From contig NC_018677.1 of NCBI RefSeq assembly GCF_000300075.1, forward strand, positions 270,001 through 302,000: DNA of 32,000 nt, read 5' to 3'. Below are positions 1-32,000 of the stretch, piece after piece (position 1 is the first letter of the stretch; every line of letters begins with the position of its first letter). The stretch is from Candidatus Saccharimonadota bacterium (GTDB taxonomy: Bacteria > Pseudomonadota > Gammaproteobacteria > Johnevansiales > Johnevansiaceae). The notes below the pieces were generated by a model that was not told where the DNA came from, did no database searches, and was given only the letters and a program-made list of their open reading frames with translations. The position numbers and the translations under genes are program-made.

Positions 1-221
1 AATAAATAATTAATAACAAACAATCAACGCAACCATTAACAACTTATCCTCTAACCATTTACACAACTATCCTCTAATTAATAACAACTAATAAAAGCAA
101 CCATTATCATCTTTTATATAACACTATTTTATCTAATTTAAGCTACTTCTAAACATTAACAACTTAACCTCTAACAAACTAACCTCTAATAACTAACAGA
201 TAACCATTTTATTTATTACAC

Positions 222-290
222 CATCTAACATCTAACATCTAACCTAACACCTAACACCTCTAACAACTAACAAACAACAAACAACAAACT
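222..290. repeat. Compound heptanucleotide microsatellite in C-strand orientation: (CATCTAA)3, (CCTAACA)2, then (CAAACAA)3
   Basis: Read directly: ccatctaacatctaacatctaacctaacacctaacacctctaacaactaacaaacaacaaacaacaaact. Confidence 0.85.
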
Positions 291-1175
291 AACCTCTTTA
301 ACATCTTTAAAGCAACCTCTAATAACTAAACCTCTTACCATCATCACATAACCTCTTAAAATACAAACTACAACCTTTATCTTCTACCAACATTCCTCTT
401 TTTAACAAACATCCTACAAACTCCAACATCTAATCTCTTAAACCACCAACTATTCCCTTTTCTTCTTTTTTTTTACAACACTAATTATAATTATGTACAA
501 CTTCTTTGTTATTAGTAAAATTTAACAACAATACAATTAAGAAACCATTATACAAAAAACAGTATTAATAGACAGAATACAACATCTAAAAAAAAAAATA
601 ATACAAATATGTAAAAAAAAAATATCTAACAGATAAAAAAAAAGAACAACAAATATACAACCTCTAACAAAGCAACCTCAAATCAAAGAAATAAAGATCT
701 AAAAAATATAAAAAAATACAACATATAATAAAAATATTTAAAACAAAAAATAAAGAGAATAACAATAATATAACAATTGAATAAAAAAAATAACAACATA
801 ACAGATAATGTTAAAACACAAAAAGCAATAACGAAGAAAGCAAAACATAAAAAGAAAAAGTTTTAAAATAAAAAAAAAAAACAACAAGTATCTAAAAACA
901 ACATAAAGAAACATTAAACAATAACGATTGTAGTTTAAGTAAAATAATAAAGAAAGAATATTATTCAAACAAAAAGTATTAACAAAACCAATAAATCAAA
1001 ACGAAACAAGAAATATAAATAAACACATTTTTAATAACTTGTACAACACATTTTAATAAATTACAAATATACATATCAGCAAACAGCTATAAAAAAAAAA
1101 CATATAAAACATAAAACACAATTTTAAAAAGCATAAAAAATATAAATAAAAAAACAAAGACAAAAATAACAAGAG

Positions 1176-2048
1176 GTGATTTCCAGTATGAGACATAAAC
1201 CTAGTTGGATAAAAATACGTGTTCCTCTATATAATGAAATTAATAATATAAAAAACAAAATAAGAAAAACATACTTACATACAGTTTGTGAAGAATCATC
1301 TTGCCCTAACATACTAAATTGTTTTAATGAAAAAATTGCAACCATTATGATCTTAGGAAATAAATGTACTAGAAAATGTCCTTTTTGTGATGTGTTGTAT
1401 GGAAAGACAATTAAGATAAACTATTATGAACCTTTTGATATAATTAAAATACTTATTAAGTTAAAAATAAACTATATAGTTATAACTTCAGTAAATCGCG
1501 ATGATTTAGAAGATGGAGGTGCTAACCACTTTTCAAAATGTATTGGTGCAATAAACCGTTTATATAAACATATAAAAATAGAAATTTTAATACCTGATTT
1601 TAGAGGTAAAAGTGATATTGCAATTAATATTTTAATTAAAAACAAACCTACTGTATTAAATCATAATATAGAGACTATACACAATTTATATTTGCAAGTA
1701 AAACCAGGTGCAACTTATGATATTTCACTTAATTTATTAAAACAAATAAAAAAATATTGTCCAAAAATAAAAACTAAATCAGGTTTAATGGTAGGAATTG
1801 GAGAAAACGATAAACAACTAATAAATGTTATTAAAGATATAAAAACAAATCAAGTAGATATTATAACTATAGGGCAATATATTGCACCATCGAATTTTCA
1901 CTTGCCAATTAAAAGATGGGTTCATCCAACAAGTTTTTATTTTTATGCAAAACTATGTTATATTTTAGGTTTTAATTATATTGCTTCAGGTCCGTTGATA
2001 AGATCTAGTTATAAAGCAAAAAATCAAAATTATGGAAAAAACATATAA
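1176..2048 (+). CDS. lipA: Lipoyl synthase
   Basis: 290-aa ORF. It carries the N-terminal cluster motif CEESSCPN and the radical-SAM motif CTRKCPFC, as in LipA (compare CEEASCPN...CTRRCPFC). AAGAGG lies at 1171-1176. The ORF track starts at GTG 1176, but the in-frame ATG at 1188 is the more likely start. Confidence 0.93.
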   Translation: MISSMRHKPSWIKIRVPLYNEINNIKNKIRKTYLHTVCEESSCPNILNCFNEKIATIMILGNKCTRKCPFCDVLYGKTIKINYYEPFDIIKILIKLKINYIVITSVNRDDLEDGGANHFSKCIGAINRLYKHIKIEILIPDFRGKSDIAINILIKNKPTVLNHNIETIHNLYLQVKPGATYDISLNLLKQIKKYCPKIKTKSGLMVGIGENDKQLINVIKDIKTNQVDIITIGQYIAPSNFHLPIKRWVHPTSFYFYAKLCYILGFNYIASGPLIRSSYKAKNQNYGKNI

Positions 2049-2281
2049 ACTTCAAATACTTTCAAAATAACTATAAACTATATATTTGTCATAACTTTAT
2101 TTATAACAACAAAACCTATAATTTATTTTTACAAGTTTAAAAACTAACAATATATATAAAAACTTTTACAAGTTCCTTTTTTTTTTATAAAATTTAACAA
2201 AACAAGTGTATTTTATTATTTGTTATTTGTTCTGATTTAGTAATTTTGGTTATCTTGTTCTGTTCTTTTTTTTTGATGTAG

Positions 2282-2352
2282 GTTTTTATTGAATTGTTGT
2301 TATTAAAAATATATGTTTTTAGCATTATGTTTTTATTGAATTGTTGTTATTT
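2282..2352. repeat. Direct repeat: two copies of gtttttattgaattgttgttatt, period about 47 nt
   Basis: Copies read at 2282-2305 and 2329-2352. Confidence 0.75.
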
Positions 2353-3042
2353 TTAACACTAATGTGTTTTTTTTATTTGAAAACCTAACCTTGCTTACTA
2401 TATGTTGTGTTCTTTCTTATCTCTCTATTTAACTCTTATTTATTTTTATTTGTTTTATATATAATATAACATCTTCTTTATTTTTATTTTTTTTTGATCT
2501 TTTATTTTACTCTTTTTTGTACTTAGAGGATACGTTATTAATACTTGTGTTATGTTTTCTAACTATTTTATGTTTTATCTTTATCTTTATGTTGTATAAT
2601 TAAAGTTATATAAAATTGTTAAGTTGTTTGATAGTATTCATTAGAGTTTATGCTTTTTTAGTATTTTGTTATCCGAAGTTGATGGCAATCGGCCTTATTA
2701 TTTGCTTAATTGTTGTTTATTGTGGTTTTAATAACTGGTGTATATTCAGATTTTGTATTTAAGAACAGTATAAAATTGTTTAGATGTATGGTATATGATT
2801 AATTTAAAATTGTTATTTCTTTCTGTATTATTTTGGTTAAAAAAATGTTTGCTTCGTTAAAGTTTTGTTGCTGCTTTAGATCTTGATATTTGCTTTATGG
2901 TGGATTGTTTTGTGGTTTATGTTTTTAAAAGATGTAGATGCTTAGTTATTGTTATTTGTGTTTTTTGTTTACTGTATATATTGTTAGAATTTGTATCAGT
3001 GTTGTTTGTATTAGTGATTTGTTGTTGTTATAACGAAAACAG

Positions 3043-3155
3043 TTATATAAGATAAAAAAATAGTTGTATTGGTGTATAATTGTTGTAAAGTTAATTACCG
3101 TCATATTATATAAGATAAAAAAATGTTGTATTGGTGTGTAATTGTTGTAAAGTTA
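3043..3155. repeat. Direct repeat of about 50 nt, two copies, period 63 nt
   Basis: ttatataagataaaaaaatagttgtattggtgtataattgttgtaaagtta at 3043-3093, against ttatataagataaaaaaatgttgtattggtgtgtaattgttgtaaagtta at 3106-3155. Confidence 0.85.
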
Positions 3156-3185
3156 TATCAAAAAGAGTAAAGAATTAGATTAATG

Positions 3186-3403
3186 GTTTGTTGTTTGTTG
3201 TTTGTTAAGGAAGTAAAAGAAATAGATTTGTGGTTTGTGGTTTGTGGTTTGTGGTTTGTTGTTTGTTGTTTGTTAGTTGTTAGTTGTTAGTTGTTAGTTG
3301 TTAAGGAAGTAAAAATGGAATTTGTGGTTTGTGGTTTGTGGTTTGTTCTTTGTTGTTTGTTGTTTGTTAGTTGTTAGTTGTTAGTTGTTAAGGAAGTAAA
3401 AGG
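3186..3403. repeat. Higher-order tandem repeat of three units (about 96 and 87 nt). Each unit is (GTGGTTT)n-(GTTGTTT)n-(GTTAGTT)n ending in GTTAAGGAAGTAAAA
   Basis: The terminator motif ttaaggaagtaaaa occurs at 3205, 3301 and 3388. The heptamer runs between them were read directly. There is only 1 C in nt 3181-3420. Confidence 0.9.
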
Positions 3404-3996
3404 ATAAAAAAAAAGAAAGGTGTGTAATGTTGTGAGAAAGGTTATTTGATAAAGTATAAAGGTTATGACAAAGGCTGTTGTGAGAGGTTTGTTAAAAAAA
3501 GAAAAGTTAGGTTATAAGGACGGACGGATATAGAATATGAGAAAAATTGTTTTGTTAAGCAAATAGGTTATAAGGTATTATACATGTTGTGAGATACTGG
3601 TTGTTAACAAAAAAAAAAAAGTACGTCATATGTTGAATTAGGGTGTTAAGTAAGAATTTGTTATTAATTTATTAATTAAACGTGTTGTAAGAAATATTAA
3701 ATAAAGTTGTGATTTGTGTTGTAAGATTTTGATTTTATCTTTATCTTTATTGTTATTGTTATTGTTAAGCGGATTTTATGAAATGTTGTTAAGCTATTAA
3801 GCTGAATTGTTGTAAATTATTATGTGGTATGATATTGTTAAAGTTTTTATTTTTAGCTGTTAGTTTCTTTGTGGGTAAGTATTTTGTTGTTAACTATTAG
3901 TTTTGTTTGTGTTTAATTTAGTTGTTAAATAGTAGTTTTTTTGTGCATTTGAAGTTTGTTGGTAAGTTGTGTGTATTGTTTGAAGTTAAATGTAAA

Positions 3997-4080
3997 TGGA
4001 GAGAGAGGGATTCGAACCCACGATAGTATAACTATACTCCTTTAGCAAAGGAGCGCCTTAAACCACTCGGCCACCTCTCC
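3997..4080 (-). tRNA. tRNA-Ser (anticodon GCU), class II with a long variable arm
   Basis: The reverse complement is GGAGAGGTGGCCGAGTGGTTTAAGGCGCTCCTTTGCTAAAGGAG...GGTTCGAATCCCTCTCTCTCCA. The anticodon loop is TTGCTAA between the CTCCT/AGGAG stem. The acceptor stem pairs GGAGAGG with TCTCTCC. It lies 11 nt downstream of the lysC stop. Confidence 0.9.
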
Positions 4081-4091
4081 TTATATAAAAT

Positions 4092-5345
4092 CTATTGAAC
4101 AATGTTATTTAGATTAAAAGTAGTATGCAAGACATGAAGTGCTAAATCCATATAGTCGTCAAAAACAAATATAGATAGTTTAAGCTCTGATGTAGATAAA
4201 AAAAGAATAATTATGCCGTGTTTTTCTAAGGTATACACAACGTTATGCAAAATACATTTATGAGAGTAGATCCCAACTCCAACAATAGAAATTATAACAG
4301 ATTTATTATCGGCTAGAATGTGTCCACAAAAGTAAATACAAATATATTTTTGTATTGTGTGAAATAATAAATTATAATCAGATTTAGATATAGTAAAAGT
4401 TATAATAAATTGAGTGGTTAAGTTTTTTATATTTTGAATACAAATATCTATTTTGTGATCTGAAAAACAAATCAAAATGTTATAGCAAACATAAGGAAAT
4501 ACTTCACAAGAAACAATTACAGTAATGTTTTCAATATTACAATTATATGTAACTCCTGAAATTAACGGGTTTTCCATTTTCTTTTCTAAAAATGACCTCT
4601 TTTGAATTAGTAATGTACCTGGATTATTATCAAAAATTGATAAAAGTCTAACAGGCATATTAGATTTAACTGCAAACTCAACAGAGCGTATTTGTAATAC
4701 TTTCGATCCTAAACTAGACAATTCTAACATATCTTCTACAGTAATATATGAAATTAAACTTGAGTTATTACATAGTCTAGGGTCTGTACTGTACACACCA
4801 GATACATCTGTATAAATTTGACATTCATCTGCGTTAATAGCAGTAGATATAGCCACAGCGGTAGTATCTGAACCGCCTCTTCCTAATGTTGTTATATTAC
4901 CATACTTATCTATTCCTTGAAATCCTGCAACTACCACAACAATATTATTATTTATATCCTTATTTATTACTGAAGTATCTATATGTTGTATACGAGCTTT
5001 TGTATACACACTATCGGTAAAGATCGATAATTGTGCTCCTGTATAAGATTTTGATTTTACCCCAACAAGATTTAAAGCAATTGATAATAACGACATAGTT
5101 ACTTGTTCACCTGTTGATAGCAAAACATCTAACTCTCGATGATTATATATATCGTTTATTGTTTTTTTTTTATACATTAGTTTTGCTAAACATAACAATC
5201 TATTTGTTTCTCCGCTCATTGCTGAGACTACAACAATAATTTTCTGTTGTTTTTTATAAAAGAAACTTATTTGTTTTGCAATGTTTTTTATATTTTTAAT
5301 TGATCCCACTGAAGTACCTCCAAACTTTTGTACAATAATTCCCAT
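4092..5345 (-). CDS. lysC: Aspartate kinase
   Basis: 417-aa ORF. The N-terminus IVQKFGGTSVGS is the aspartokinase signature, GRGGSDTTA is present, and the C-terminal region is ACT-like. The start ATG overlaps the stop of the upstream alaS fragment as TAATG. Confidence 0.92.
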   Translation of the reverse strand: MGIIVQKFGGTSVGSIKNIKNIAKQISFFYKKQQKIIVVVSAMSGETNRLLCLAKLMYKKKTINDIYNHRELDVLLSTGEQVTMSLLSIALNLVGVKSKSYTGAQLSIFTDSVYTKARIQHIDTSVINKDINNNIVVVVAGFQGIDKYGNITTLGRGGSDTTAVAISTAINADECQIYTDVSGVYSTDPRLCNNSSLISYITVEDMLELSSLGSKVLQIRSVEFAVKSNMPVRLLSIFDNNPGTLLIQKRSFLEKKMENPLISGVTYNCNIENITVIVSCEVFPYVCYNILICFSDHKIDICIQNIKNLTTQFIITFTISKSDYNLLFHTIQKYICIYFCGHILADNKSVIISIVGVGIYSHKCILHNVVYTLEKHGIIILFLSTSELKLSIFVFDDYMDLALHVLHTTFNLNNIVQ

Positions 5346-6646
5346 TATAAACCTCTTTTAAATAAAAAAGTTTTTATATTTGTTTTTAATGTTTTAGTAT
5401 ATAACATATTAAAATTGTTTATACTAGTCTTAAGATATGAAACATTTGTAGTTGCATTATAAAAAATTGTTTTATTTGTTTGTAAAACTTGTTTAAAAAA
5501 AACACTATATGGTCTAAATTTTAAACAGTCATTCGTTATTTTAATAAATACGTTTATATTATGTTTATTTAAAACATAAACAATTATTATACTTTTATTT
5601 ACTAATTTGTTTACGATGCTATGCAGTATTACAAACAAATCTTTTTTGTACTTACTTTTTATTTTGTATATTAAAAATTTATAACCAAAAAAATAAAACA
5701 TTTTACTAAGTAATTTGTTTATTTGTTTTTGTATAGTTATTTGTTTAAACAAGTTAAACTCATCAAGAAGCACTTTGTTTTTATTTTTAAGATGTTTAAT
5801 ATTTTTTTTAACATTATTTAAACATAGATTGCTAGCAAACGATAAATCTTTTAGAGTTAATTTGTTTTTTAAAATATAACGAACAGCATTTTTATTAGTT
5901 ACTGCCTCAATACGACGTATACCTTTAGATACACATTGTTCTGACATAATACAAAAACAACCAATATTTTTTGTGGTTTTGATGTGAGTTCCATTACATA
6001 CGTCTATGGAATAACCTCCCTCTTTTCCAATAACAACTACATTTTTATGTTTTATATTTTTTTTTTGTTTAGATAAAAGTTTAATTAAAATTATATGTTG
6101 TTTGGCTATTGCACGATTTATTAACAGTTCAATTATAAATAAAATTTTGTTTGTCAACGGTTTATAAGATTTATATTCAAATATTATTTTATTTTGATTA
6201 ATAAAAAATCCTTTTTTTATTAGTTTTTTTTTAGCCACTCTTTGTATTGTTACATTTAATAAATGTATAGCTGAATGAGCAACACTTATATTATAACGAA
6301 TAATTTTGTCTATATAACAATTAACGTGTGTTGTATTTGAAAAATAACCTTTCAATAAAGTTCCTACATGAAAAAACAAAGAATTATGTTTAATCACGTT
6401 ATATACTTTAAATTTTCCTAATTTATTATAAATATATCCTACGTCACTAATGACTTGCCCACCTTTTTCAAAAATAAAAGATGATATTTTTAAAATAATT
6501 GTTCCTTGTGTATTTTCGCTTATAAAGTTTATGTTTTTACCTTCTTTATTTAAGATTTTTTGTATTTTTGTTTTATAAAAATATATATTACTAAAAAAAA
6601 AGTTTTGAGTTATTATACTGTCCTTTATTGTATATAAATAAAACGA
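5345..6646 (-). CDS. alaS: Alanine--tRNA ligase, C-terminal part only (beta-barrel, editing and C-Ala regions). The aminoacylation domain is absent, so this is a truncated gene or possible pseudogene
   Basis: The ORF track calls 5345..6397 with a GTG start. My hand translation shows the frame stays open upstream to a TAA at 6647-6649. The extension still matches AlaRS: FIFEKGGQVISDVG against FYAESGGQVGDKG. The editing-site zinc motifs HSAIH (HxxxH) and CNGTH (CxxxH) and GIRRIEAVT are conserved. There is no ATG, GTG or TTG codon in the extension, and nothing resembling the N-terminal ~450 aa is present upstream. Confidence 0.8.
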   Translation of the reverse strand, partial: SFYLYTIKDSIITQNFFFSNIYFYKTKIQKILNKEGKNINFISENTQGTIILKISSFIFEKGGQVISDVGYIYNKLGKFKVYNVIKHNSLFFHVGTLLKGYFSNTTHVNCYIDKIIRYNISVAHSAIHLLNVTIQRVAKKKLIKKGFFINQNKIIFEYKSYKPLTNKILFIIELLINRAIAKQHIILIKLLSKQKKNIKHKNVVVIGKEGGYSIDVCNGTHIKTTKNIGCFCIMSEQCVSKGIRRIEAVTNKNAVRYILKNKLTLKDLSFASNLCLNNVKKNIKHLKNKNKVLLDEFNLFKQITIQKQINKLLSKMFYFFGYKFLIYKIKSKYKKDLFVILHSIVNKLVNKSIIIVYVLNKHNINVFIKITNDCLKFRPYSVFFKQVLQTNKTIFYNATTNVSYLKTSINNFNMLYTKTLKTNIKTFLFKRGL

Positions 6647-6989
6647 TTAAGTTGTAATAATTCTTTTATCTCTTGCATATTATAAAACAATGTTTACTTT
6701 TAAAACACTTAATTTATACTTTCTTTTAACTTTTCGATGTTTATTATTTACTATCAAAATACAACTTTATTTTTTTTTATAACAAACCTTTTTTGCAACT
6801 TAAATTGTGTAGATCTTTTTTTTTAAAGCAATACAAAAAATTTTTTTTATTTCTATTAATAATAGCTAGTATATACTAACTTTACCGTTTTCACCCTGTT
6901 ATATACTAACGTTCTTCTTCAAACTGCTTTACTACTATATAATAAACTATATATTTCAGCTAAGAGCTAAACTTTTTTATCTTTTAGCA

Positions 6990-7115
6990 TATAACAAGTT
7001 TTATTTTGTTTGAATAATATATTAACTTTCTTCATTTTTTCTATAACAACTTTTTTATTTTGTTTGAATAATACATTAACTATCTTTATATTTTCTATAA
7101 CAACTTTTCTAAAAC
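6990..7115. repeat. Tandem repeat, period about 53 nt, about 2.4 copies
   Basis: The unit tataacaa(g/c)tttt..attttgtttgaataata(t/c)attaact..ttttc was read at 6990, 7042 and 7096. Confidence 0.8.
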
Positions 7116-7640
7116 CTGATTAACTATTTTAATCTTTTTATACAACGTATTTTTTTTAACAACTAATTAATGTATTTATTATTACATTAAACAATTTACA
7201 TTTTTCCTTTAACGCTAATTGAAAACATTTAACAACAACTAGCTTTTAATTTAACCATAAACTTTTTTAAACCACCTAAGACTAAGAACCTAACTGTTTT
7301 TTATCTACAACGCATAACCTAAACAACCACAATACACCTACTGATTACAACTTTACACCTCTTATAATACAACATTGAAATATAGTAACTAAATACATAA
7401 AAAAATTACTGAATTATATTAAATTAATATAACAAAAAATTGATTTTACGCTAATAATAACACCAAAACAATACATAAAACACAAAAGTAAAGTATTGCT
7501 AACATCAAACAACTATTAACAAACACACCTTTTGCTTTTATTTTTATATATGTTTCTTACTATATACTAAATTGATTACAACAAACACACATATTTAGGT
7601 TGTTGTTTTATACAACTTTCATAATTTTTACTAAACTGTT

Positions 7641-7736
7641 AACAACAACTAACAACTAACAACTAACCACTAAACACTAACCACTAACCACTAACCACTA
7701 ACCAACAACCAACAACCAACAACCAACAACCAACAC
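7641..7736. repeat. Compound heptanucleotide microsatellite in C-strand orientation: (CAACTAA)3-(CCACTAA)5-(CCAACAA)5
   Basis: Read directly. There is no G in nt 7641-7740. The reverse complement (TTAGTTG, TTAGTGG and TTGTTGG units) is related to the array at 3186-3403. Confidence 0.9.
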
Positions 7737-7878
7737 AAAACTGATAACAACAAACGTATAAAAAATAACAAAACAAAAGTTTGTAAAAAAATAAACATAC
7801 AGCTAATAAAAACAAAAAAGATATATTCTAAAACATACTACTTTTGTAGTAAACATAAAAAATTAAGTTTAAATTGTG

Positions 7879-10470
7879 TTATAAGCTAACAACTATATTT
7901 ATTACTTTTGCATGTACGAAAATAAGTGTATGGATTTCTTTACAGTTCAGATAACCTTTTATAGATATAGAAGATAAAATAGTACTTGCAAACGTTTTTG
8001 TATGATAATTTAAAGGCAATTTAATTTCTTTACGTATTTTTCCATTAATCTGTGCTAACACAGTAAACAACTGACCTAACATGCAATGTTTATTATAACT
8101 AGGCCATTTTGCATCTATTACAGCATATGAGAACCCCAAAACTTTCCATAAAACATGGGTTATGTGAGGAACAATAGGGGCTAAAATTAGAATTATTGAT
8201 TTCAAAGCTTCCCTTGTTACTGCCAAGCCGATAATACTACTGTCTATATCTATAAAGTGTAATACTAAGTTAGTTAATTTCATAACAGTTGATATTACAG
8301 TATTAAAGACATGTCTTCCAATCATATCTGAAGTAGCTTTTTTTATAGTTTTCTGAAGTTGTCTATATAAATTAAATTGGTCTGGCCTTAATGATGAGAG
8401 TTTTATTATGGTATGCTCTGAGCCTGAGATATATATATATGTATGAACTATATTCCATAACCGCTTAATAAACCTGCTGGAACCAATGATGCCAGATTCA
8501 GACCATATAAGTACTTGTTCCGTTGGTGCAGAAAACATAACAAACAAACGTAGAGTATCAGCACCAAATCTATTAATTAGAACATTAGGATCAATGCCGT
8601 TGTTTTTAGATTTAGACATTTTTTCAATACCGTTTCTTATAACAATTCCACCATCTCTTTTAACCGTTGGTATTATATTTCCGTTTTTTTTATCTTTTAA
8701 CAAACAAACATCTAAAGGATTAAACCACTCTTTTATGCCAAAACTTTCTCTATAATATGTATAAGTTAAAACCATACCTTGAGTAATTAATTTTTTGAAA
8801 GGTTCATCACAATCAACCAATCCAAAGTCGCGCATTAATTTATGAAAAAAACGAGCATACATTAAATGCAAAATTGCATGTTCTATACCGCCTATATACA
8901 TATCTACTGGTAACCAATAATTTACCCTTGCATCAAGAATTGAGTTGTTATTATCAGTACAACAAAACCGTGCGTAATACCAAGATGATTCTATAAAAGT
9001 ATCAAAAGTTTCTGTGTCCCGCACCCATCCATTTCCTAACACGTAAAAAGACGGTATTTTTTTTAAATTAAATTTACTGTTCAAACAGCCATGTTTTGGT
9101 AAATATACAGGTATTTCTTCATCAGTAAGGGGCGTTTGTTTACCTGTTATACCGTATTTTACTGGTATAGGAGTACCCCAATATCTTTGCCTAGAAATGC
9201 CCCAATCACGTAACTTTAGTTTTTGTTTTACAACACCACTCTTATATTGTTTTATAAAATAAAAGATGTAATCAAAAGCTTCAAAACAAGTTATGTTGTT
9301 AAAAATACCTGAATTGATAATAAATCCAAAATCAGTATATGCATTTTTTGAAATATCAGGTACTTTACCATTTATATCAGAAACAACAGTCTTAAATGGC
9401 AATCCATAAGTGTTTGCAAAATCCCAATCTCTGTGACTGTGAGCCGGAACACCCATACTTGCCGTAGCACCATATTCAAAATATCTAAAACTAGAAACAT
9501 ATAAAGGCAAAATTTCATTTGTTATTGGATGTAAAACATTGTATCCAACATATAATCCAAGTTCTTTATTCTTTAATGTTGCCAATGAACATTTACCACA
9601 AAAAGTAAAAGTATTACAAAGTTTCTTTATTTGATAATTATATTGCGCAGCTAATTCAACTAAATGATGATCAGGTGCTAAAAGTATATAAGTAACGCCA
9701 AATAAAGTGTCTGGTCGTTGTGTAAATACTTTTAAGTAAGAGTAACAATTAGGTACAGAACCAATAACTTTAAATGACACTTCTATTCCTTTATATTTAC
9801 CAATCCAATTAACTTGCATTTTTTTTACAGACTCTGGCCAATCAATATTTGCTAAACATCTCAAAAGTTCATAAGCGTAATCTGTAATTTTTAAAAACCA
9901 ACTAGGAATTTTTCTGTGTTCTATTTTTGCACCAGACCGCCAACCAATACCGTTAATTACTTGCTCATTAGCTAAAATCGTCTTTTCTAGAGGATCCCAA
10001 TTAATAATTGCGTTATTTTTATAAATAACGCCGTGCTCGATCAATTTAATAAAAAACCATTGTTCCCAGCGATAAAAATCTATTTTACAAGTTGTTATTT
10101 TCCTATCCCAATTATAAGAAAATCCTAAGCTTTTAAGTTGATTATACATATAGTAAATGTTTGAATTAGTCCAGTCAGTAGGAGAAACAATATTTTTTTT
10201 TGCAGCGTTTTCTGCAGGCATACCAAAGGCGTCCCACCCTATAGGGTTTAATACATTTTTACCTAGCATACGTTGTGAACGAGAAATAACATCACCTATT
10301 GTGTAGTTACGAACGTGTCCTATATGTAGATTGCCGCTAGGATATGGAAACATACATAAACAATAAAACTTTTCCTTATTAGGTATTTCTACTATTTCAA
10401 AACAATTGTGATTGTACCAAAAATTTTGAGCTTCTAGTTCAATTTTTTTATAAGAAAAAGGATACATCAT
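7879..10470 (-). CDS. leuS: Leucine--tRNA ligase
   Basis: 863-aa ORF with the class I motifs PYPSGNLHIGH (HIGH) and KMSKSKNN (KMSKS). Length is close to that of bacterial LeuRS. Confidence 0.96.
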   Translation of the reverse strand: MMYPFSYKKIELEAQNFWYNHNCFEIVEIPNKEKFYCLCMFPYPSGNLHIGHVRNYTIGDVISRSQRMLGKNVLNPIGWDAFGMPAENAAKKNIVSPTDWTNSNIYYMYNQLKSLGFSYNWDRKITTCKIDFYRWEQWFFIKLIEHGVIYKNNAIINWDPLEKTILANEQVINGIGWRSGAKIEHRKIPSWFLKITDYAYELLRCLANIDWPESVKKMQVNWIGKYKGIEVSFKVIGSVPNCYSYLKVFTQRPDTLFGVTYILLAPDHHLVELAAQYNYQIKKLCNTFTFCGKCSLATLKNKELGLYVGYNVLHPITNEILPLYVSSFRYFEYGATASMGVPAHSHRDWDFANTYGLPFKTVVSDINGKVPDISKNAYTDFGFIINSGIFNNITCFEAFDYIFYFIKQYKSGVVKQKLKLRDWGISRQRYWGTPIPVKYGITGKQTPLTDEEIPVYLPKHGCLNSKFNLKKIPSFYVLGNGWVRDTETFDTFIESSWYYARFCCTDNNNSILDARVNYWLPVDMYIGGIEHAILHLMYARFFHKLMRDFGLVDCDEPFKKLITQGMVLTYTYYRESFGIKEWFNPLDVCLLKDKKNGNIIPTVKRDGGIVIRNGIEKMSKSKNNGIDPNVLINRFGADTLRLFVMFSAPTEQVLIWSESGIIGSSRFIKRLWNIVHTYIYISGSEHTIIKLSSLRPDQFNLYRQLQKTIKKATSDMIGRHVFNTVISTVMKLTNLVLHFIDIDSSIIGLAVTREALKSIILILAPIVPHITHVLWKVLGFSYAVIDAKWPSYNKHCMLGQLFTVLAQINGKIRKEIKLPLNYHTKTFASTILSSISIKGYLNCKEIHTLIFVHAKVINIVVSL

Positions 10471-10943
10471 AAATGTATATTTGTTTTGTTTAAATTTGAA
10501 TATTCAATATTTTCCATGTTATCAGCATCAGTTACATTCTTATGATTATACCCGATTAAGTGTAATAAACCATGAACTATTATATGAGCACAATGAGCAA
10601 TAAATGCTTTATTCTTTTTAAATGATTCATATAAAAGTAAAGTGGGAGTTATGACTAACTCACCTAATAATTGTATGTTAATTCTTTGCGAAAGAGCTTC
10701 ATATGAAAAAGAAATTATATTTGTTAAAGAATTAAAACCACGATAATAACTATTTAAGCCAATAATTTCCTTATATTCAACAAAACGAATATTAAAAACA
10801 ATATCTTTATAATGTTTATATTTTGGCTTTAAAAACGAACAAAACCAAGAACTTAGTAATGACTCATTTGGCACGATTTTTTTAATTGTATTATTTTTTA
10901 TAAACTGCATATGTACGTATACACATTTTATTTTCTTTTTCAT
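10467..10943 (-). CDS. ybeY: rRNA maturation endoribonuclease YbeY
   Basis: 158-aa ORF with the metal-binding motif HGLLHLIGYNH (HxxxHxxxxxH). It overlaps the leuS start by 4 nt (ATGA). The true start may be the internal Met (MQFIKN). Confidence 0.85.
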   Translation of the reverse strand: MKKKIKCVYVHMQFIKNNTIKKIVPNESLLSSWFCSFLKPKYKHYKDIVFNIRFVEYKEIIGLNSYYRGFNSLTNIISFSYEALSQRINIQLLGELVITPTLLLYESFKKNKAFIAHCAHIIVHGLLHLIGYNHKNVTDADNMENIEYSNLNKTNIHL

Positions 10944-11801
10944 TTTTTTACTTTTTGCTGTTAGTTTATTTGTGTTTGAGCTTATATTTGTTTTTTTTGT
11001 TCTTATTTCTTTTTTTTTTACTTTATTATTATTTTTATGTGTTTTTTATCTGTTATATTTTGTGTTTATTTTTATGTAGTTTAAAACAATTTATTTATCT
11101 TTTTTATGAATTATGTTTTCTGTGCAATCTATATATGTTTTGTTGTGTGCTTTATGTTTTTTTTCTATATTTCTTACTCTTATGCTTTTGTTGTTATTTT
11201 CTTTATTCCTTAGAGTTTTATTTCTTATCTGTTAGATGCTTTTTTTATGTTGTTAGAGTTTTGTTGCTTAAAACTGTTATTTTTTTGTTATTTTGAGGTT
11301 AGTTATTTGATATTAGATGTTTATTTCTTTGTTATTTAGATTTTGTTATATTTTGTTAAGAGTTATATAGTTTTAGATTATATAGTGTATGTTATATGTT
11401 ATTATTCAAAGTTTGTTATATGATAGCTGTTAGAATCTGATATTTGTTATTTAAATTAGCGGTTTGTTTAAAAGGAAATTCTCTTTAAGTTGTATTCTTT
11501 TATTATATTTGAATTAAGATTTTAGATGTTTATTCCTTCTATTTTTTTGTCTCTTTTAGTTTTTTATAGTTTTTGTTGTATTAATTTATGTTTTTAAGTA
11601 TATTTAGAGTTTGTAGGTTTATTTATTAGAGGTTAGAAGTTAGATTTTTGTTTGTTAGAGGTTGTTTATTTGTTAGAGTTTAGTTTATTTTAGCGGTTAT
11701 TTAGTAGAGGTTAGAGTTTTGGGTTTTAGAAGTTGTAGGTTAGCTTAAGTTGTTTGTTTATTAAAAGTGTTGTTGTTTTTGAATATAGTTCTTTCTTTAA
11801 A

Positions 11802-11841
11802 TTTATAGAGGGTTAAATGTTTACTTTATAGAGGGTTAAAT
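11802..11841. repeat. Direct repeat tttatagagggttaaat, two copies, period 23 nt
   Basis: Copies read at 11802-11818 and 11825-11841. Confidence 0.75.
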
Positions 11842-13972
11842 TGTTAGTTATTATTTGTTACTTGTTATTTGTCTCTTAAAATCATTTCTTTGCTTTATTT
11901 ATTTGTAGGTTTAAAAGGCAAAGTAAAGTGTAATTCTGTTTAGACTACTTGATAATGTATTAAAACTTAAAAAGTTGTGTCTAATTATGTTGTTATGTAG
12001 ATGGTTCAGCTGTTACGTTGTTAAATTTTAGATGTTTTGTCTAAATGCTATTATGTAAACTCTGATTGTGTTGTTATGTAGTTGTTCAGAAGTTGTTATA
12101 AAAAGGTGTATGTAGTTATGTATTGTATAATACAAAATATTATTATATTTACTTACTATTAATTTAAAATTGTTTGCTGTTGTGAACTTAGTGTCGTATA
12201 TTATTATTTAATTGAATTAGAATTAGTTATATAAAAATGAGTAATTAAGTAGGAATAGTGAGCTGTATTGTTAATTATATATTATGAATAAATGTTTTGT
12301 TGTTACAAGAAAACGAAATGTTAAAATTAGATGTATGTTTAATTGAAGTTATGTAGTTGTGAAATAAAAAAGTAGTGTAAATATGTTAAGCTATTATGAT
12401 GTTTAGATTGTATGAAGTTAAAACGTGTAGTAATAGGTTATGTGCTTATGAATTAAAGTTGTTATGTATTGTGTATATAGGTAAGTTGTAGTTAGTAGGA
12501 GTTGCAATGGATGCATGGTGTAAGTGAATTAATTTATATGATTTTTGTATAAAGTTTGTTGCTGTATAAAATAAAAAGTAAACAATAGGGGTATAATAAT
12601 GTAATATGCTTAATGTAGTAATATCGGTGTTTGTTAATATGCTTGTTTATTGTTTTGGTTAAGTTTATATTAATTGATGGTTGTTTAATATGTTGAATAA
12701 AATAGTTATTGTTAATATATAGTATTAATGTTTGATAAAAAAAGTTATTAGAAAAATGTGTTTATTTGTTAGTGTATTAAGTTTATTTATGTTATTGGTT
12801 AAAAGTATAAAAAGGTATTAAAATCATTTAAATTAGCTGTGTTGTTCGGTTTCTTTTATAGTTTGTTTTCTTTAAAATTAGAGGTTTGTTATTCTTTTTC
12901 TATTAATTGTGTATTAAAAACTTATACGTTATTAGTTAATGCAAATTTGTACTTTCTTTTTTTTTTTTTATATTAATTTAGCTTTCTAGTCTTTAAATGT
13001 TTTTAAGAAAGTTTGTTAACTGTTGTATTCTTTAAAAAGATAGTTTATATGTTGTTTTATTATTACATTATTTATCAGTTTTGTATTAGTTATATGTAAA
13101 ATATGTGCTTTATGTTTGTTTAAAGGATTGAAAATTTTTTTTGTTTATACATTTGTTATTTGTTGATGTTATCTTTTTTTATTTTGCTTTAGGTACTTTT
13201 CTGTTATGTGTTAAGTTTTTATTTTTAAACTTTTATGTGTATTTTTGATTAGTTTGTATGAGCTGTGTTATATGAACTTAATATAAGCTGTAAATTTATA
13301 AAGTTGTACTTTAAAGGATGGTTTGTATGTTGGTAAAACAAGAAAACGAAATATATAACAGAAGAGAGAAGATTGTATAAAAGAAAAATGTAATCTGTAT
13401 ATTTGTGTTCAGTTGTTAATGGTATGTGATAGGTAAGTATGAAATAATATGATATATCAAAGAGAGTTAAAGGAAAAAAGTAATATGTGGTAGTGGTTTT
13501 TATAAGGTTTATGGTCGTTGTTTGTTAAATGTGTTTATGTTCAATAAAAAGCTATATTAGCTTTAGTAAAAGTGCTGTGTATTAAAGTTAGAAAAAACTA
13601 AGGATGTCATACTAAGTAAAACAAAGACTAACAATATGTTAATGTTAGGAATTAGATGAAATTATGTTAGCTATTATTGTTTGTTAGAGATTTGTAGGTA
13701 AATTTTGTTTTGGTATATTGCTATTAAGTTCATTTTTGTATCATTCTTTTTAATGTTTGTTATTCATTTTTTATGATATTTGAAAACTGTTATATGAACA
13801 AAACAAGTACTTAAAATGTTATTGTGTTATAAAAAAAAGACTAAGAATCGGATGGTAAAAGGAAGAAGGTGTTATGTATGTTTAATGGTAAACTGTTTAA
13901 ACTAGTAAATTTTAGAAAAAAATAATAAAATAAGTAATTTAAATAAGGTAAAAAAAACAAGAAGGAAGAATC

Positions 13973-16717: not shown

Positions 16718-17464
16718 TAAAATCCTTTTTATTAAAGTTTTTTATATCTGGTTTAATGTAAACAATATTGTTATGTATTTACTAAAGTTTATTAATGTAC
16801 TTTGTGGCTTTATGTAACTTTTATTTTTTGTTATTGATTTTTTATTAAAGTTCTTTGATAACAAATTTTAAGGCTTTATGTATGTTTTCATTTCTTTTAT
16901 ATGTTTATTTTTTGTATTTATGTTTAATTTTTGCAAATTACTTTATTTTTCTATAATTTTAAGTTGTATTATTAAGTGATTTGTTTTGCAGAATTTATAA
17001 AATAAGGTTTGCAGTACAAACAAATGTTTTATGTATTTCGGTAAAAGATAGTTTTATCTATTTTTAGTTACTAATTTTATTTTTTGTATTCTATAAGAAA
17101 TGTTAATAAGTATCAATTATTATTAGTTGTATTGAAAAAATAGTATATGTTTGTTATGAGAAATATATATGTATAAAATGAGAGAAAAAAGTAAGTAAAT
17201 GTAGTTGTTAAGTGTTGTTGTTAAAAAATATTAAGATTAGTTGTTACTTATTTTGGTTTATATTATTTAGCATTAACTTGAAAATTGTTTTGTTAAAAAG
17301 ATTTCTATATTCTTTTTATTATTTACAGAAAGTTGTTTTTGTAATCATCATTTAATTAAACGAAATAAAATAATGTATGATTTATTAAAGCTTTATTTGT
17401 GTTATATATAAATGCTAAATATATTTTGTTATTTCAAAAAAAATTGTCTGGTGCTTTTTATATA

Positions 17465-23346: not shown

Positions 23347-23480
23347 TGTTATTTCTTGTTTTCTTTGCTGTAATTATATAGACCCTATAAGTATTATTCT
23401 TCTTTTATTTTCTGACTTTAAACACTTTTTCTGCCCCTATTTTTTTAAACTTTTCTATAGTATATCTTTATTTACTGATT

Positions 23481-23572
23481 TTTTTTCGTTCATTATTCTT
23501 TTAACTTTTTTCTATTGCTTTGATCTATTTCGCTGTTACTAAATCTTTTTTTTCGTTCATTATTCTTTTAAC
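23481..23572. repeat. Direct repeat ttttttcgttcattattcttttaac, two copies, period about 66 nt
   Basis: Copies read at 23481-23505 and about 23546-23572. Confidence 0.8.
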
Positions 23573-23816
23573 CTTTATATTTTACCAATGACTACCTTTT
23601 TTTCCATCATTGTTGTCCTTTGTAGCGTGTTATTATAACCTTTTGTTTTCTTTGTAACCTACAATACAACCAATTTACTTTTATTATATATATACCTGAT
23701 TTTTTTTAACTTATACAAATATATTTATTAAAGAACATAGTATCTAAGTACCTTTTTAGCTTTTACCTCAAACATCTAAAAACTAACCTTACACCTTATA
23801 ACAAACTTACCTATAA

Positions 23817-23843
23817 TACAGTACAGTACAGACCAGACCAGAC
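23817..23843. repeat. Pentanucleotide microsatellite (TACAG)3(ACCAG)2
   Basis: Read directly: tacagtacagtacagaccagaccagac. Confidence 0.8.
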
Positions 23844-24198
23844 TTATTTTATGAAATAACCATCTATTATATATTGATCCATATAGTCTACTTTTTTCTT
23901 CTACCAGATCCTTTGATTGTGAAACCAGTTGCGAACCTTATAAGTGTAGTATTTTGTTTAAATATGTATTTTTTGATGTTTAGATATATTTTGCCACTAC
24001 TCTATTCATTCTTTTTAGTTTATAATCTGTCCTTGGTTTAATAGTTTTTGCAATACTACTTTTTTTCTTTTTTTACATCTAATATGTTATTACCTTATGT
24101 TTACTATTTAGTGTCTACCTGTTTCTTTTAACCTAACAAAAACCTAATCTTTTTTTTTAGTGCTAAACTACAAAACTTTTAGCTAAAGCACTAACTAA

Positions 24199-28099: not shown

Positions 28100-28272
28100 A
28101 ATTATATTTTTTTACTTTTTTAAAAATCAAAATCTAAAATAAATAAAACTAATATCTACTAATCTACTATCTAAATACATATTGTTTCATTAGTTCCATA
28201 ATAAGTAACCAATTTTATAGAAACCCTTTATCATAAACCATTACCTCATCAATTCTTTTATTCCATCTTTAT

Positions 28273-28385
28273 AGCAACAACAACACCCTATCTTTATACC
28301 CTTTTTAGCAACAACAACACCCTATCTTTATACCCTTTTTAGCAACAACAACACCCTTTTTAGCTTTTTCTCCAACAACAACAAG
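28273..28385. repeat. 34-nt tandem repeat, about 3 copies, with a 12-nt deletion in the third copy
   Basis: agcaacaacaacaccctatctttataccctttt starts at 28273 and 28307. The copy starting at 28341 lacks tatctttatacc. Confidence 0.9.
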
Positions 28386-28938
28386 CTATATCCTTCTTTG
28401 TTTAGTATGCCTTTTAACATCAAACATCAAACACATAACCTTTTATAATTAACATTTAAACATACAGCCCATCTACACAAATACACTGTATTAACACAAC
28501 CATAACAAAAAGTAAACTATTATCATAGTACGACATATCTTGTACACACAAAACAAAAAGATAACAAAGACAATAAAAACCGTACACACAACAAATAAAG
28601 AAAACAAATAAAATCACAAAAAAAAATACAGCATAATCACAAAAAAAAAAGAGAAAAATACAAAACTTTAAATAGAACTAAATACTAACACAACACATAA
28701 GTTACTTAAGACAAAAAGAAAGTACAAATAAAGGGAAAACAACAACGAAAATAACATCAAAAAGTATTAAACATTTAATCAAAAAATAATACAAATTCAT
28801 ATAAAAATATAACAAAAAAAAAGAAGCGAAAAAGTAGTAGATGTATATTATTAAAGAGTAATAAATACTAAGATTTTATTAGCTATCAGCTTTAAATTAG
28901 TAGAAAACTTTCTGTTTATAAAAACAAAAGGAAATTTT

Positions 28939-29768: not shown

Positions 29769-30128
29769 AAATATGGTTTTTATATAGTTATAAAAGATAT
29801 AGTTAACTGAGTATAAAAGTATCTGAGCATCATAAAAAAACAAGTTATGTTAGGCTTAAGGAATAGTTCAAAAAATATACAAAAATTTATCTTAAATTAG
29901 CAAAAGAAAACATAGCTCAATAGTGAGTTATGAAGTGCAAATAGGAATATACTTGCATAAAGAATTGGATATCAACAAAATTCATGTAGAAAGAATAAAA
30001 GTAAAAGATAATAAAATTATTGTTGTTCCTATATTATGTGCATGTTTAAGTATGATGATGAATATTCAATAGTGCTCATATTTAGCTTAAAGGTAAAATG
30101 TCGTAACAAATTTTATTTTCTATTATTT

Positions 30129-30160
30129 TGTATCTTGTATCTTGTTTGTTGTTTGTTGTT
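30129..30160. repeat. Short compound heptamer array (GTATCTT)2(GTTTGTT)2-3
   Basis: Read directly: tgtatcttgtatcttgtttgttgtttgttgtt. It uses the same GTTGTTT unit as the array at 3186-3403. Confidence 0.7.
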
Positions 30161-30476
30161 AAATTTTTCTATTAGTTAAAGCTTTAGTCATAGGCTAGCA
30201 ACATGAGTTAATTTGATTTCTTTAACAATTATGCTTAAAGAACAAGTTAAGAAAGTTGTATTAATTGCTTAATTAGTTAGCTTAGGTATAACAACATTTT
30301 AAATAGCACTATTAATAGTAAAATAAATACAGGTTCAACAAAAAAGAAAGTAATAAAAGATTGTTATATAATAATATGTATCTGTGATGCTTAAGTTAAG
30401 AAGAAGTTTTGGCATTAGATAAAAACAATAAAGTATAGTGGTAAGAAAAAAAACAAAAGATATAATATGTTACTAT

Positions 30477-30548
30477 GGGTCGTTAGCTCAGTGGTAGAGC
30501 AGTTGGCTTTTAACCAATTGGTCGTAGGTTCAAATCCTACACGACCCA
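30477..30548 (+). tRNA. tRNA-Lys (anticodon UUU)
   Basis: The acceptor stem pairs GGGTCGT with ACGACCC. The D-arm is GCTC-AGTGGTA-GAGC. The anticodon stem-loop is GTTGG-CTTTTAA-CCAAT. The T-arm is GTAGG-TTCAAAT-CCTAC, and the discriminator is A. Confidence 0.93.
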
Positions 30549-30573
30549 TTTATATTCATAAAAAAATAATAAC

Positions 30574-32000
30574 ATGAAAAGAATTCTTATTTATAAAGAA
30601 ATCATATCAGATTTAGATACTCCTCTTTCTCTTTATATGAAAGTAGCAAATTATCATTGGACTTTTTTATTAGAATCGATAGAAGGAAAAAAGCAATGGT
30701 GTAGATATTCTATAATTGGTTTACGCTGTCATCAAAGAATAGAAATATATAATAATAAAATAAATTTATTTAAAGACAAAATAAAAATTGAAAAAACAAA
30801 AAAAATAGATACGTTAGTTTGGCTTTCAAAATATATAAAAACAATAAAAAAAACTATTCTTAAAAAAAATAAAAGCAAAACAATATTGGATGGAGGCTTA
30901 GTAGGATATTTGGGCTATGATATAATAAGATTAATTGAACCAACTATTAAAACGTATAAGCAATATAATCCCATTAATACACCTGACATATTTTTGTTAA
31001 GAGCTAATGAACTATTGATAATAGATAAGTATTCAGGCAGATTAACAATCTTAGTAAATGTTAATATATATGATTTAAAAAAAGGTTTAGAACGCATAAA
31101 AATAATATTAAAGAAACTAAGTCTATGTGCAAATTTTAATAAAACAGAATTAGTTACACATTCATTCCAAACACATATCAAACATAAATATACACTTAAA
31201 CCTATATTTTCTAGTTTTAATAAGTTTACTTTTCAAAATTATATTATTAACCTACAAAAATATATTAATTCTGGAGATGTAATGCAATGTGTACCTTCAC
31301 AACGCATTATTATACCGTTTTATTCTCAACCATTTAATCTTTTTCGCGCATTAAGAGTTTTAAACCCATCACCATATATGTTGTTTTTTAATTTTAACGA
31401 TCATTATGTTGTTGGTTCTTCTCCTGAGATTTTGGTAAGAGTAGATAATAAAACAATTACTTTAAGACCTATAGCTGGAACAATTCAAAAACGAAGTGGT
31501 ATACACAATGAAATATTAAAGGATTATAAAGAAGTTTCAGAACATATTATGTTAATTGATTTAGGCCGTAATGATGTAGGAAAAGTTAGTAGTACTGTAA
31601 GAGTTCAAAATCAATTTTTAATAGAAAGATACTCACATGTAAGACATATAGTTTCAACATTAATTGGTATATTAAAACATAAAATAGATCTGATTGATAT
31701 TGTACGCGCTACTTTTCCAGCTGGTACTATTGCTGGTGCACCAAAAATAAGAGCTTTAGAGATTATAAATACACTTGAACCTATTCGACGTGGTATATAT
31801 TCAGGAGCAATAGGTTTTTTATCTTGGAATGGTAATATGAATATAGCTATTGCAATTAGAACAGCAATAGTTAAAAATTATAAACTACATATTCAAGCTG
31901 GTGTAGGAATTATAGAAGAATCTCAATATAAGAAAGAATGGAATGAAATATTAAATAAAAGTAGCGTTATATTGAAAGCCGCACTTATTGCTATAGTTGA
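30574..32000 (+). CDS. trpE: Anthranilate synthase component I, 3'-partial (runs off the window)
   Basis: It is not in the ORF track because no stop lies inside the window. My hand translation from ATG 30574 stays open to nt 32000 (475 codons). It contains LLESIEG, GDVMQCVPSQR, LNPSPYMLFF, GSSPEILVRV, LRPIAGT, IDLGRNDVGKV, FPAGTIAGAPKIRA and RGIYSGAIGF. It starts 25 nt after tRNA-Lys. Confidence 0.93.
   Translation, partial: MKRILIYKEIISDLDTPLSLYMKVANYHWTFLLESIEGKKQWCRYSIIGLRCHQRIEIYNNKINLFKDKIKIEKTKKIDTLVWLSKYIKTIKKTILKKNKSKTILDGGLVGYLGYDIIRLIEPTIKTYKQYNPINTPDIFLLRANELLIIDKYSGRLTILVNVNIYDLKKGLERIKIILKKLSLCANFNKTELVTHSFQTHIKHKYTLKPIFSSFNKFTFQNYIINLQKYINSGDVMQCVPSQRIIIPFYSQPFNLFRALRVLNPSPYMLFFNFNDHYVVGSSPEILVRVDNKTITLRPIAGTIQKRSGIHNEILKDYKEVSEHIMLIDLGRNDVGKVSSTVRVQNQFLIERYSHVRHIVSTLIGILKHKIDLIDIVRATFPAGTIAGAPKIRALEIINTLEPIRRGIYSGAIGFLSWNGNMNIAIAIRTAIVKNYKLHIQAGVGIIEESQYKKEWNEILNKSSVILKAALIAIV

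Follow-up and report, generated by a model that had tools for sequence, protein, structure and literature searches.

Long non-coding spacers are a described feature of Candidatus Portiera aleyrodidarum from Bemisia tabaci (Portiera BT), and the searchable text of three published papers sets out their main properties. Coding sequence makes up only 69% of this genome and about 30% is intergenic; the tandem repeats show 'a dramatic spike at 7 bp', and strains differ by 7-bp insertions or deletions (indels) (Sloan & Moran 2013, PMC3673631). The same text gives dnaQ, dnaN, dnaX, holA, holB, mutL, ruvC and ssb as genes lost in Portiera BT. The genome-wide GC-skew pattern has been lost as well (Santos-Garcia et al. 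2015, PMC5322561), and the loss of dnaQ has been tied to the long spacers (Santos-Garcia et al. 2020, PMC7821994). According to these texts, the long spacers, the repeat spike and the 7-bp strain indels are absent from other Portiera lineages. Low coding density tied to the loss of replication and repair genes is also described for Tremblaya princeps and for Portiera of Singhiella simplex, which have 0 and 3 tandem repeats, respectively, compared with 111 in Portiera BT (PMC7821994, Table 1). The present analysis concerns a stretch of 32,000 nucleotides (positions 270,001 to 302,000 of contig NC_018677.1; 'the window' below) and, within it, the spacer upstream of the lipoyl synthase gene lipA, in which an earlier note had pointed out a tract nearly devoid of G on the plus strand and a recurring CCTCTAA motif. 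This G-free tract is one of the already described repeat-expanded Portiera spacers, a phenomenon published in 2013. Very probably it is non-coding filler DNA produced in the Bemisia Portiera lineage by slippage and local duplication of G-free 7-nt units; the missing G is inherited from the repeat unit, and no special mutation process is needed.

Tandem heptanucleotides are also found far from Portiera: the short tandemly repeated repetitive (STRR) sequences of filamentous cyanobacteria were reportedly described by Mazel et al. in 1990. They resemble the repeats discussed here in being tandem 7-nt units in intergenic DNA, but their hosts are unrelated and have the full replication and repair machinery, and their arrays are short and dispersed and form no kilobase-scale spacers. 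Unit length and type are all that the two have in common, and no homology is implied. A scan of GTDB genomes for exact (AACAHCT)x3 arrays returned many cyanobacteria (Stigonema, Calothrix, Microcoleus and others) and Bacteroidota among the matches listed, and no Portiera loci among the approximately 80 of 120 matches listed. The tract also resembles replication-associated GC/AT skew, in which a G+T-rich strand is paired with a C+A-rich one; here, however, |GC skew| climbs to 0.9 across stretches of hundreds of bases, and only in spacers; its sign changes over short distances, and four-fold sites nearby do not show it. Relative to the published Portiera spacers, the details added are that the repeats belong to a single, AACAACT-type heptamer family, that G-free or C-free blocks extend over kilobases in both orientations, and that a 7-nt periodicity reaches beyond the visible arrays. 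Both the polarity of the strands and the membership of the repeats in one heptamer family appear to be undescribed details of a known phenomenon: in the searchable text of the three Portiera papers (PMC3673631, PMC5322561, PMC7821994) neither the sequences of the repeat units nor the strand polarity of the spacers is given, the word 'skew' has no occurrence in two of them, and the third notes only the genome-wide loss of GC skew. A broad literature search on the motif or the polarity returned no relevant Portiera paper.

The LipA protein encoded downstream of the tract is residue-for-residue the same in five complete genomes of 351-357 kb (CP007563, CP016304, CP016327 and two Joint Genome Institute (JGI) genomes) and in several metagenome contigs, and the source records name it lipoyl synthase of Candidatus Portiera aleyrodidarum MED (Bemisia tabaci). 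The window and the CP016304 locus (L003) show no differences across the 12,048 nt compared, and from these matches the window can be assigned to Candidatus Portiera aleyrodidarum of Bemisia tabaci; a window coordinate equals the L003 coordinate minus 8813. Within this lineage, five genomes (L001-L005) were aligned over 20.9-kb loci comprising window 1-12048 and 8.8 kb upstream. Two other lineages served for comparison, namely the Aleurodicus Portiera (L009, LN734649), which is of ancestral type, and a more closely related Portiera lineage (L010).

The composition of the tract is as extreme as the earlier note had counted by hand. Window 1-480 contains 197 A, 131 C, 147 T and only five G (at 29, 97, 142, 199 and 312), and the GC skew over 1-500 is -0.91; the adjoining segment 481-1175 (plus strand) consists of 426 A, 81 C, 42 G and 146 T, that is, 61% A and 6% G, in agreement with its description as strongly A-rich and still short of G. 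The claim that the region holds no credible open reading frame (ORF) was likewise borne out by an ORF scan, which found just low-complexity minus-strand ORFs of 76 aa or less. Rfam and tRNA scans of the spacer detected no family or tRNA in the tract and only the flanking tRNAs, and a scan of 1-2600 for promoters and terminators gave 21 promoter-like sites, compared with 22 in shuffled sequence, and no terminators. The tract does lie in the spacer upstream of lipA, as had been proposed, but the edge of the window cuts through a G-poor block of about 1.1-1.5 kb, which begins some 600-1000 nt ahead of the window, so that 1-480 is merely its 3' end. The gene itself, whose product carries LIAS_N and Radical_SAM domains, likely starts at the ATG at 1188, behind the Shine-Dalgarno sequence AGAGGTGAT at 1172 (1172-1180), and runs on the plus strand to a stop at 2048.

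The complete spacer is 3773 bp long in L003, from the end of the second tRNA-Ser (6227) to the start of lipA (10001), and its anatomy was read from base composition in 100-nt steps. A C-poor, G+T-rich part (L003 6400-7700) and a mixed part (7700-8190) lie upstream of the window. They are followed by the G-poor part, which begins at about 7800/8190, contains 0-3 G per 100 nt over about 8200-9300 and ends at about 9300, or window position 480, and then by the A-rich part (9300-10000, window 481-1187). The A-rich 481-1175 is probably older than the G-free block, as judged by sequence comparison, since L010 has a segment matching it in length and composition. Two other ways of deriving the two opposed halves were tried and rejected. 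A large inverted duplication linking the G-rich half to the C-rich one would require a real palindrome, and only short arms of 73-89% identity were found, as expected because the motif families are common to both halves; a telomere-like head-to-head addition would account for a G-rich part followed by a C-rich one, and this arrangement occurs in only one of eight long spacers. At the switch point between the C-poor and G-poor halves lies a pentamer array, (CAGTT)x4 (L003 7640-7660), at which strains vary by 5-bp indels.

The motif singled out by the earlier note, CCTCTAA, is present exactly at all seven positions it gave (48, 71, 168, 183, 257, 316 and 661), and CCTCTT occurs at 293, 331 and 352 as reported and additionally at 395. 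The rough estimate that this is far more than chance would give holds up in 2000 dinucleotide-preserving shuffles of window 1-480: six copies of CCTCTAA are observed against a shuffle mean of 0.18 and a maximum of 3, and none of the 2000 shuffles reached six. When the choice of motif is allowed for, any heptamer at all reaches six copies in about 2% of the shuffles, and 30 heptamers recur at least three times, compared with 5.7 in shuffles (maximum 14). The statement that the spacer is built from CCTCTAA is nevertheless too strong. The motif recurs and is enriched, but it accounts for only about 10% of 1-480, and its copies sit inside a longer unit of 15-25 nt, AAC(C/A)ATTAACAACTTA(T/A)CCTCTAAC, located on the plus strand at 31-55, 151-175 and 166-190 and again at 314-338 and 659-683 by repeat search, and detected by Tandem Repeats Finder (TRF) with periods of 23 and 15.

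The actual tandem arrays in the tract are made of CATCTAA, CTAACAA and AACAAAC. They overlap at 222-293 on the plus strand, where TRF reports CATCTAA x7.3 and CTAACAA x9.7, running into AACAAAC. These units and CCTCTAA are closely related, as CCTCTAA is a rotation of AACCTCT, CATCTAA of AACATCT and CTAACAA of AACAACT, and single substitutions link AACCTCT to AACATCT and AACATCT to AACAACT. Together with AAACAAC they form one heptamer family (AACAACT, AACATCT, AACCTCT, AAACAAC), all units of which are spelled with A, C and T only. Counting all rotations of the four units, 43% of window 1-480 belongs to the family, compared with 7% on average and 17% at most in shuffles; the coverage by the family is 28% in the whole G-poor block, 21% in 2600-3996, 15% in the 3-kb spacer between ybeY and trpB, 9-28% in most other long spacers, and 5-7% in two that have no lag-7 signal. 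The family is always on the G-poor strand, and coverage of the opposite, G-rich strand is 0-2%. Among heptamer units with two or more G/C bases, 15 of 17 carry only C or only G.

A periodicity of 7 nt runs through the polarised DNA. Seven is the modal TRF period (24 of 133 arrays), and autocorrelation is strongest at lag 7 in window 1-480 (z = 5.4) and in the whole G-poor block (z = 7.7). The lag-7 signal is the top one in all six blocks that show it, with z = 5.4, 7.7, 4.1, 6.3, 5.9 and 5.2, and no such signal is found in coding sequence. When every TRF array is masked, z is still 2.7, 4.4, 3.5, 1.5, 2.6 and 3.8 in these six blocks. The signal thus persists outside recognizable arrays, which means that a large share of the spacer sequence that looks unique consists of heptamer arrays that have decayed.

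The same step length is seen where strains differ. In an alignment of eight B. tabaci Portiera strains, the tract is nearly invariant save for window 160-340, in which indels of 7, 14, 15 and 21 bp are placed in arrays; the arrays at 222-293 are a hotspot for the differences of 7, 14 and 21 bp, and a 15-bp duplication, AACCTCTAATAACTA, at 314-328 (plus strand; alignment columns 335-349) is found in this strain only. In the five-genome alignment of the locus, only 1-bp indels are commoner than those of 7 bp (16 runs), and runs of 14, 21, 28, 35 and 49 bp occur too. An excess of 7-bp tandem repeats and strain indels of 7n bp located in repeats, both of which characterize the published spacers, are thus found here.

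Comparison with the other lineages indicates growth. The gene order in L009 is aspS-ruvC-orf149-tRNASer-tRNASer-lipB-lipA-mutS, with a gap of only 238 bp between lipB and lipA; the interval homologous to the 3.77-kb spacer is 662 bp including lipB, or one sixth, which makes the present spacer abnormally long. In L010, LipA is 90% identical (lipA 91.5% at the DNA level), and the spacer upstream of it is 1.1 kb long, with a T/G-rich and an A-rich part and without the C-rich, G-free block. The spacer between ybeY and trpB measures 56 bp in L010 (19463-19519) and 3029 bp here, with no gene lost between them, and is a clean case of de novo growth. Heptamers of the AAACAAC type and polarised spacers are already present in L010; the 'arrays' of L009 are AT-only and of low complexity. 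The period-7 mode, the lag-7 signal, the 7n indels and the shorter spacers of the relatives all support one of the two origins offered by the earlier note, growth from a strand-polarised seed by slippage or duplication.

The polarity is not peculiar to lipA. Intergenic DNA makes up 38% of the 38.6 kb examined, and every spacer of at least 700 bp has an overall |GC skew| of 0.36-0.56, except the lipA-upstream spacer, in which two opposed blocks cancel to -0.19; spacers below 250 bp are unskewed. A |GC skew| of at least 0.6 is found in 47% of intergenic 100-nt windows compared with 1% of coding ones, and in 5% at the L009 locus, and several spacers hold G-free or C-free runs of 100-188 nt. The polarity of long spacers occurs in either orientation. 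Units of the family lie on the plus strand at 222-293 and 7644-7735, and 3186-3390 holds their reverse complements (GTTTGTT, TTTGTGG, TTTGTTG, TTGTTAG).

These observations suggest how such a spacer was very probably generated. Repeated replication slippage and local duplication of short units, mainly the 7-nt AACAACT, AACATCT, AACCTCT and AAACAAC but also the 15-25-nt composites, would build it up in the Bemisia lineage, and each round of expansion would add G-free DNA to the same strand because the units hold only A, C and T. Ordinary, strand-symmetric point substitution would then blur the arrays. G would return slowly, since every new G requires a mutation at an A, T or C site, and C would meanwhile go on being lost to T or A. 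This slow return may explain why the presumably young core 1-480 has an obvious motif and hardly any G, and why the presumably older, A-rich 481-1175 shows 6% G and lacks the periodicity. Polarity would belong to each block, and both orientations would be expected if arrays arise, or invert, independently. The Portiera BT genome has undergone inversions; alaS-lysC-tRNASer is inverted here relative to L009, and inversions help explain the blocks in both orientations. The loss of the proofreading subunit, the clamp, the clamp loader, the single-stranded DNA-binding protein (SSB) and MutL, known from the literature, may have provided the permissive background. In this scheme we infer both slippage as the molecular mechanism and the absence of function.

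Several points weigh against this account of slippage and duplication. Slippage alone does not explain why the units are 7 nt long or why all of them are three-letter. No lag-7 signal is found in 481-1175 or in three shorter polarised spacers, to which the repeat origin is extrapolated. Substitutions polarised with L004 amount to 15 events, with A>C 5 and T>G 1, a difference that is not significant and a number too small to prove symmetry (L010 was dropped as an outgroup for this purpose, its spacers being unalignable). Three spacers orthologous between L010 and Portiera BT keep their polarity though their sequence is unalignable; this is what rapid local turnover would leave if new units were derived from their neighbours, but it would also fit a persistent directional force. 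Finally, the analysis covers approximately 41 kb, or 11%, of the genome.

The alternative that survives best is that the three-letter composition itself has been selected or filtered: without SSB, only repeats with unfoldable single strands would expand and persist, or the unstructured spacers would be functional in buffering rearrangements or insulating transcription. Single strands of the polarised blocks indeed fold with only -2.4 to -6 kcal/mol per 200 nt, compared with -11 to -13 for coding sequence of similar GC and -12 to -14 for controls of symmetrised composition, and the single-type G/C content of 15 of the 17 heptamer units points the same way, as does the speculation, in the searchable text of Santos-Garcia et al. 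2020 (PMC7821994), that selection for resilience favours long spacers. Low structure, however, follows automatically from the composition, and the units are one mutationally connected family whose common polarity may be a single historical accident. In addition, the spacers show no sequence conservation between lineages, and promoter-like sites do not exceed those in shuffles, which leaves selection or filtering distinctly unlikely. A related proposal, which we regard as unlikely, is that heptamers of three letters only reflect a physical filter in a cell without SSB, clamp, proofreading and MutL, the 7-nt step deriving from the geometry of bare DnaE. If true, the spacers would be a natural read-out of slippage by a minimal replisome.

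The other origin offered by the earlier note was a mutation process acting strongly on one strand. Such a process could be tied to replication or transcription, for example through deamination of cytosines on single strands left bare for lack of SSB, and would strip C from one strand and thereby G from the other. In each block a G+T-rich strand does face a C+A-rich one, as is classically seen with single-strand deamination; ssb is given as lost in the searchable text on this lineage (PMC3673631), and the polarity kept between Portiera BT and L010 in three orthologous spacers of unalignable sequence could be counted in its favour. The distribution of the skew, however, does not follow from such a process. 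Within the lipA spacer alone the sign changes, from a C-poor part (L003 6400-7700) to a G-poor one (7800-9300); the spacers at 6590-7878 (negative) and 16718-17464 (positive) have opposite signs, each between two minus-strand genes; and the direction of read-through predicts the sign in only about four of seven spacers. Nor is the skew common to neighbouring neutral sites: beside blocks with a skew of +/-0.5 to 0.9, four-fold sites are unskewed in lipA (C 2, G 4), leuS (C 20, G 21) and valS (C 16, G 17), so there is no regional mutational skew, and the sign of the spacer skew bears no consistent relation to the orientation of the genes. Near-perfect arrays, which are young because they are near-perfect, are already fully polarised, for example (TTTGTGG) x6.7 at 97% identity. 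Strain differences on the G-poor strand (composition A 3216, T 2258, C 1453, G 258) comprise 41 A<>T, 40 A<>C, 13 C<>T, 10 G<>T and 2 A<>G. Strand-symmetric rates would lead to ratios of 1.4 to 5.6 depending on the GC>AT bias, and both contrasts (A<>C 40 vs G<>T 10, C<>T 13 vs A<>G 2) were reported as within the strand-symmetric expectation; the strain differences fit a strand-symmetric spectrum acting on an asymmetric sequence. A strand-specific mutation process is very unlikely on these grounds.

The substitutions among L001-L005 have a further peculiarity, in that they are overwhelmingly transversions (36 vs 2 transitions at third codon positions, 144 vs 25 in spacers), most of them A:T<>T:A and A:T<>C:G. 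Spacers evolve approximately 1.7 times faster than third codon positions in this comparison.

It is highly improbable that a gene once located here, lipB or another, was lost and decayed into the spacer. Such a remnant might be expected from the gene order of the ancestral-type Portiera, where lipA directly follows lipB, with ruvC farther upstream and mutS downstream; none of the three is in these positions here. A tblastn search of the spacers (word size 2, E up to 10), however, gave no trace of LipB, RuvC or MutS; with the ancestral LipB, RuvC, ORF149 and MutS as queries, hits outside an overlap with the tRNA-Ser genes were no better than E of about 0.4-1. The present spacer is six times the ancestral 662-bp interval, the 3-kb ybeY-trpB spacer arose from a 56-bp spacer, and gene decay neither strips one base from one strand nor yields a 7-nt periodicity, so that the earlier note was right to reject a dead gene. 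An origin of the block as foreign or mobile DNA that entered upstream of lipA, or as an error of assembly, is barely conceivable. Its restriction to the B. tabaci lineage and absence from L010 would speak for such an origin; against it, blastn in distant mode found no match in the plasmid and phage collections, the block has no ORFs, and it recurs, with small length differences of 7n, in three metagenome contigs and in five complete genomes that are independent of one another.

The remaining long spacers of the window are polarised as well (coordinates on the plus strand). Downstream of lipA, 2600-3996 is a C-poor block of opposite polarity containing the reverse-complement family (TTTGTGG, TTTGTTG, TTGTTAG). 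Within it, a higher-order repeat of 87-94 nt (3188-3401, about two copies, 89-96% identical) is made of heptamer arrays, and therefore whole arrays have been duplicated as well as single units. The G-poor spacer 6590-7878 carries (AACAACT) x13.6 at 7644-7735; a 54-nt unit is also found there, at 6970-7108, in 2.2-2.6 copies. The spacer between ybeY and trpB, at 10944-13972, is C-poor over its 3029 bp, and another C-poor spacer, at 16718-17464, has a GC skew of +0.41 and no clear lag-7 signal. Two further spacers are G-poor: 23347-24198, with a GC skew of -0.36, and 28100-28938, with a skew of -0.48, small period-7 arrays and a 34-nt repeat. The latter unit, CTTTTTAGCAACAACAACACCCTATCTTTATACC, is present in 2.7 copies of 98% identity at 28267-28357.

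Genes near these spacers show losses of their own. The alaS gene at 5345-6589 (minus strand) corresponds to only the carboxy-terminal half, about residues 444-845, of the 866-aa ancestral AlaRS; its only domain is tRNA_SAD, and the catalytic amino-terminal half is missing both here and in L010. In addition, comparison of window 1-4091 with L009 6206-15495 shows that ruvC, lipB and mutS no longer occupy the positions near lipA that they hold in the ancestral type. In 29770-32000 the ORF list shows, besides tRNA-Lys (30476-30549), just an 88-aa minus-strand ORF.

The main value of these results lies in the correct classification of the tract, which displays at one locus the genome instability already published for Portiera from B. 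tabaci and is not a new element or mutational process. Because the repeats are one three-letter heptamer family, the long spacers all form kilobase-scale, strand-polarised blocks whose single strands hardly fold. A |GC skew| of at least 0.6 per 100 nt thus provides a simple marker of repeat-derived DNA, even where it has decayed. The question posed by the Portiera spacers is sharpened accordingly: why does a replisome without proofreading, clamp and SSB slip in steps of 7 nt?

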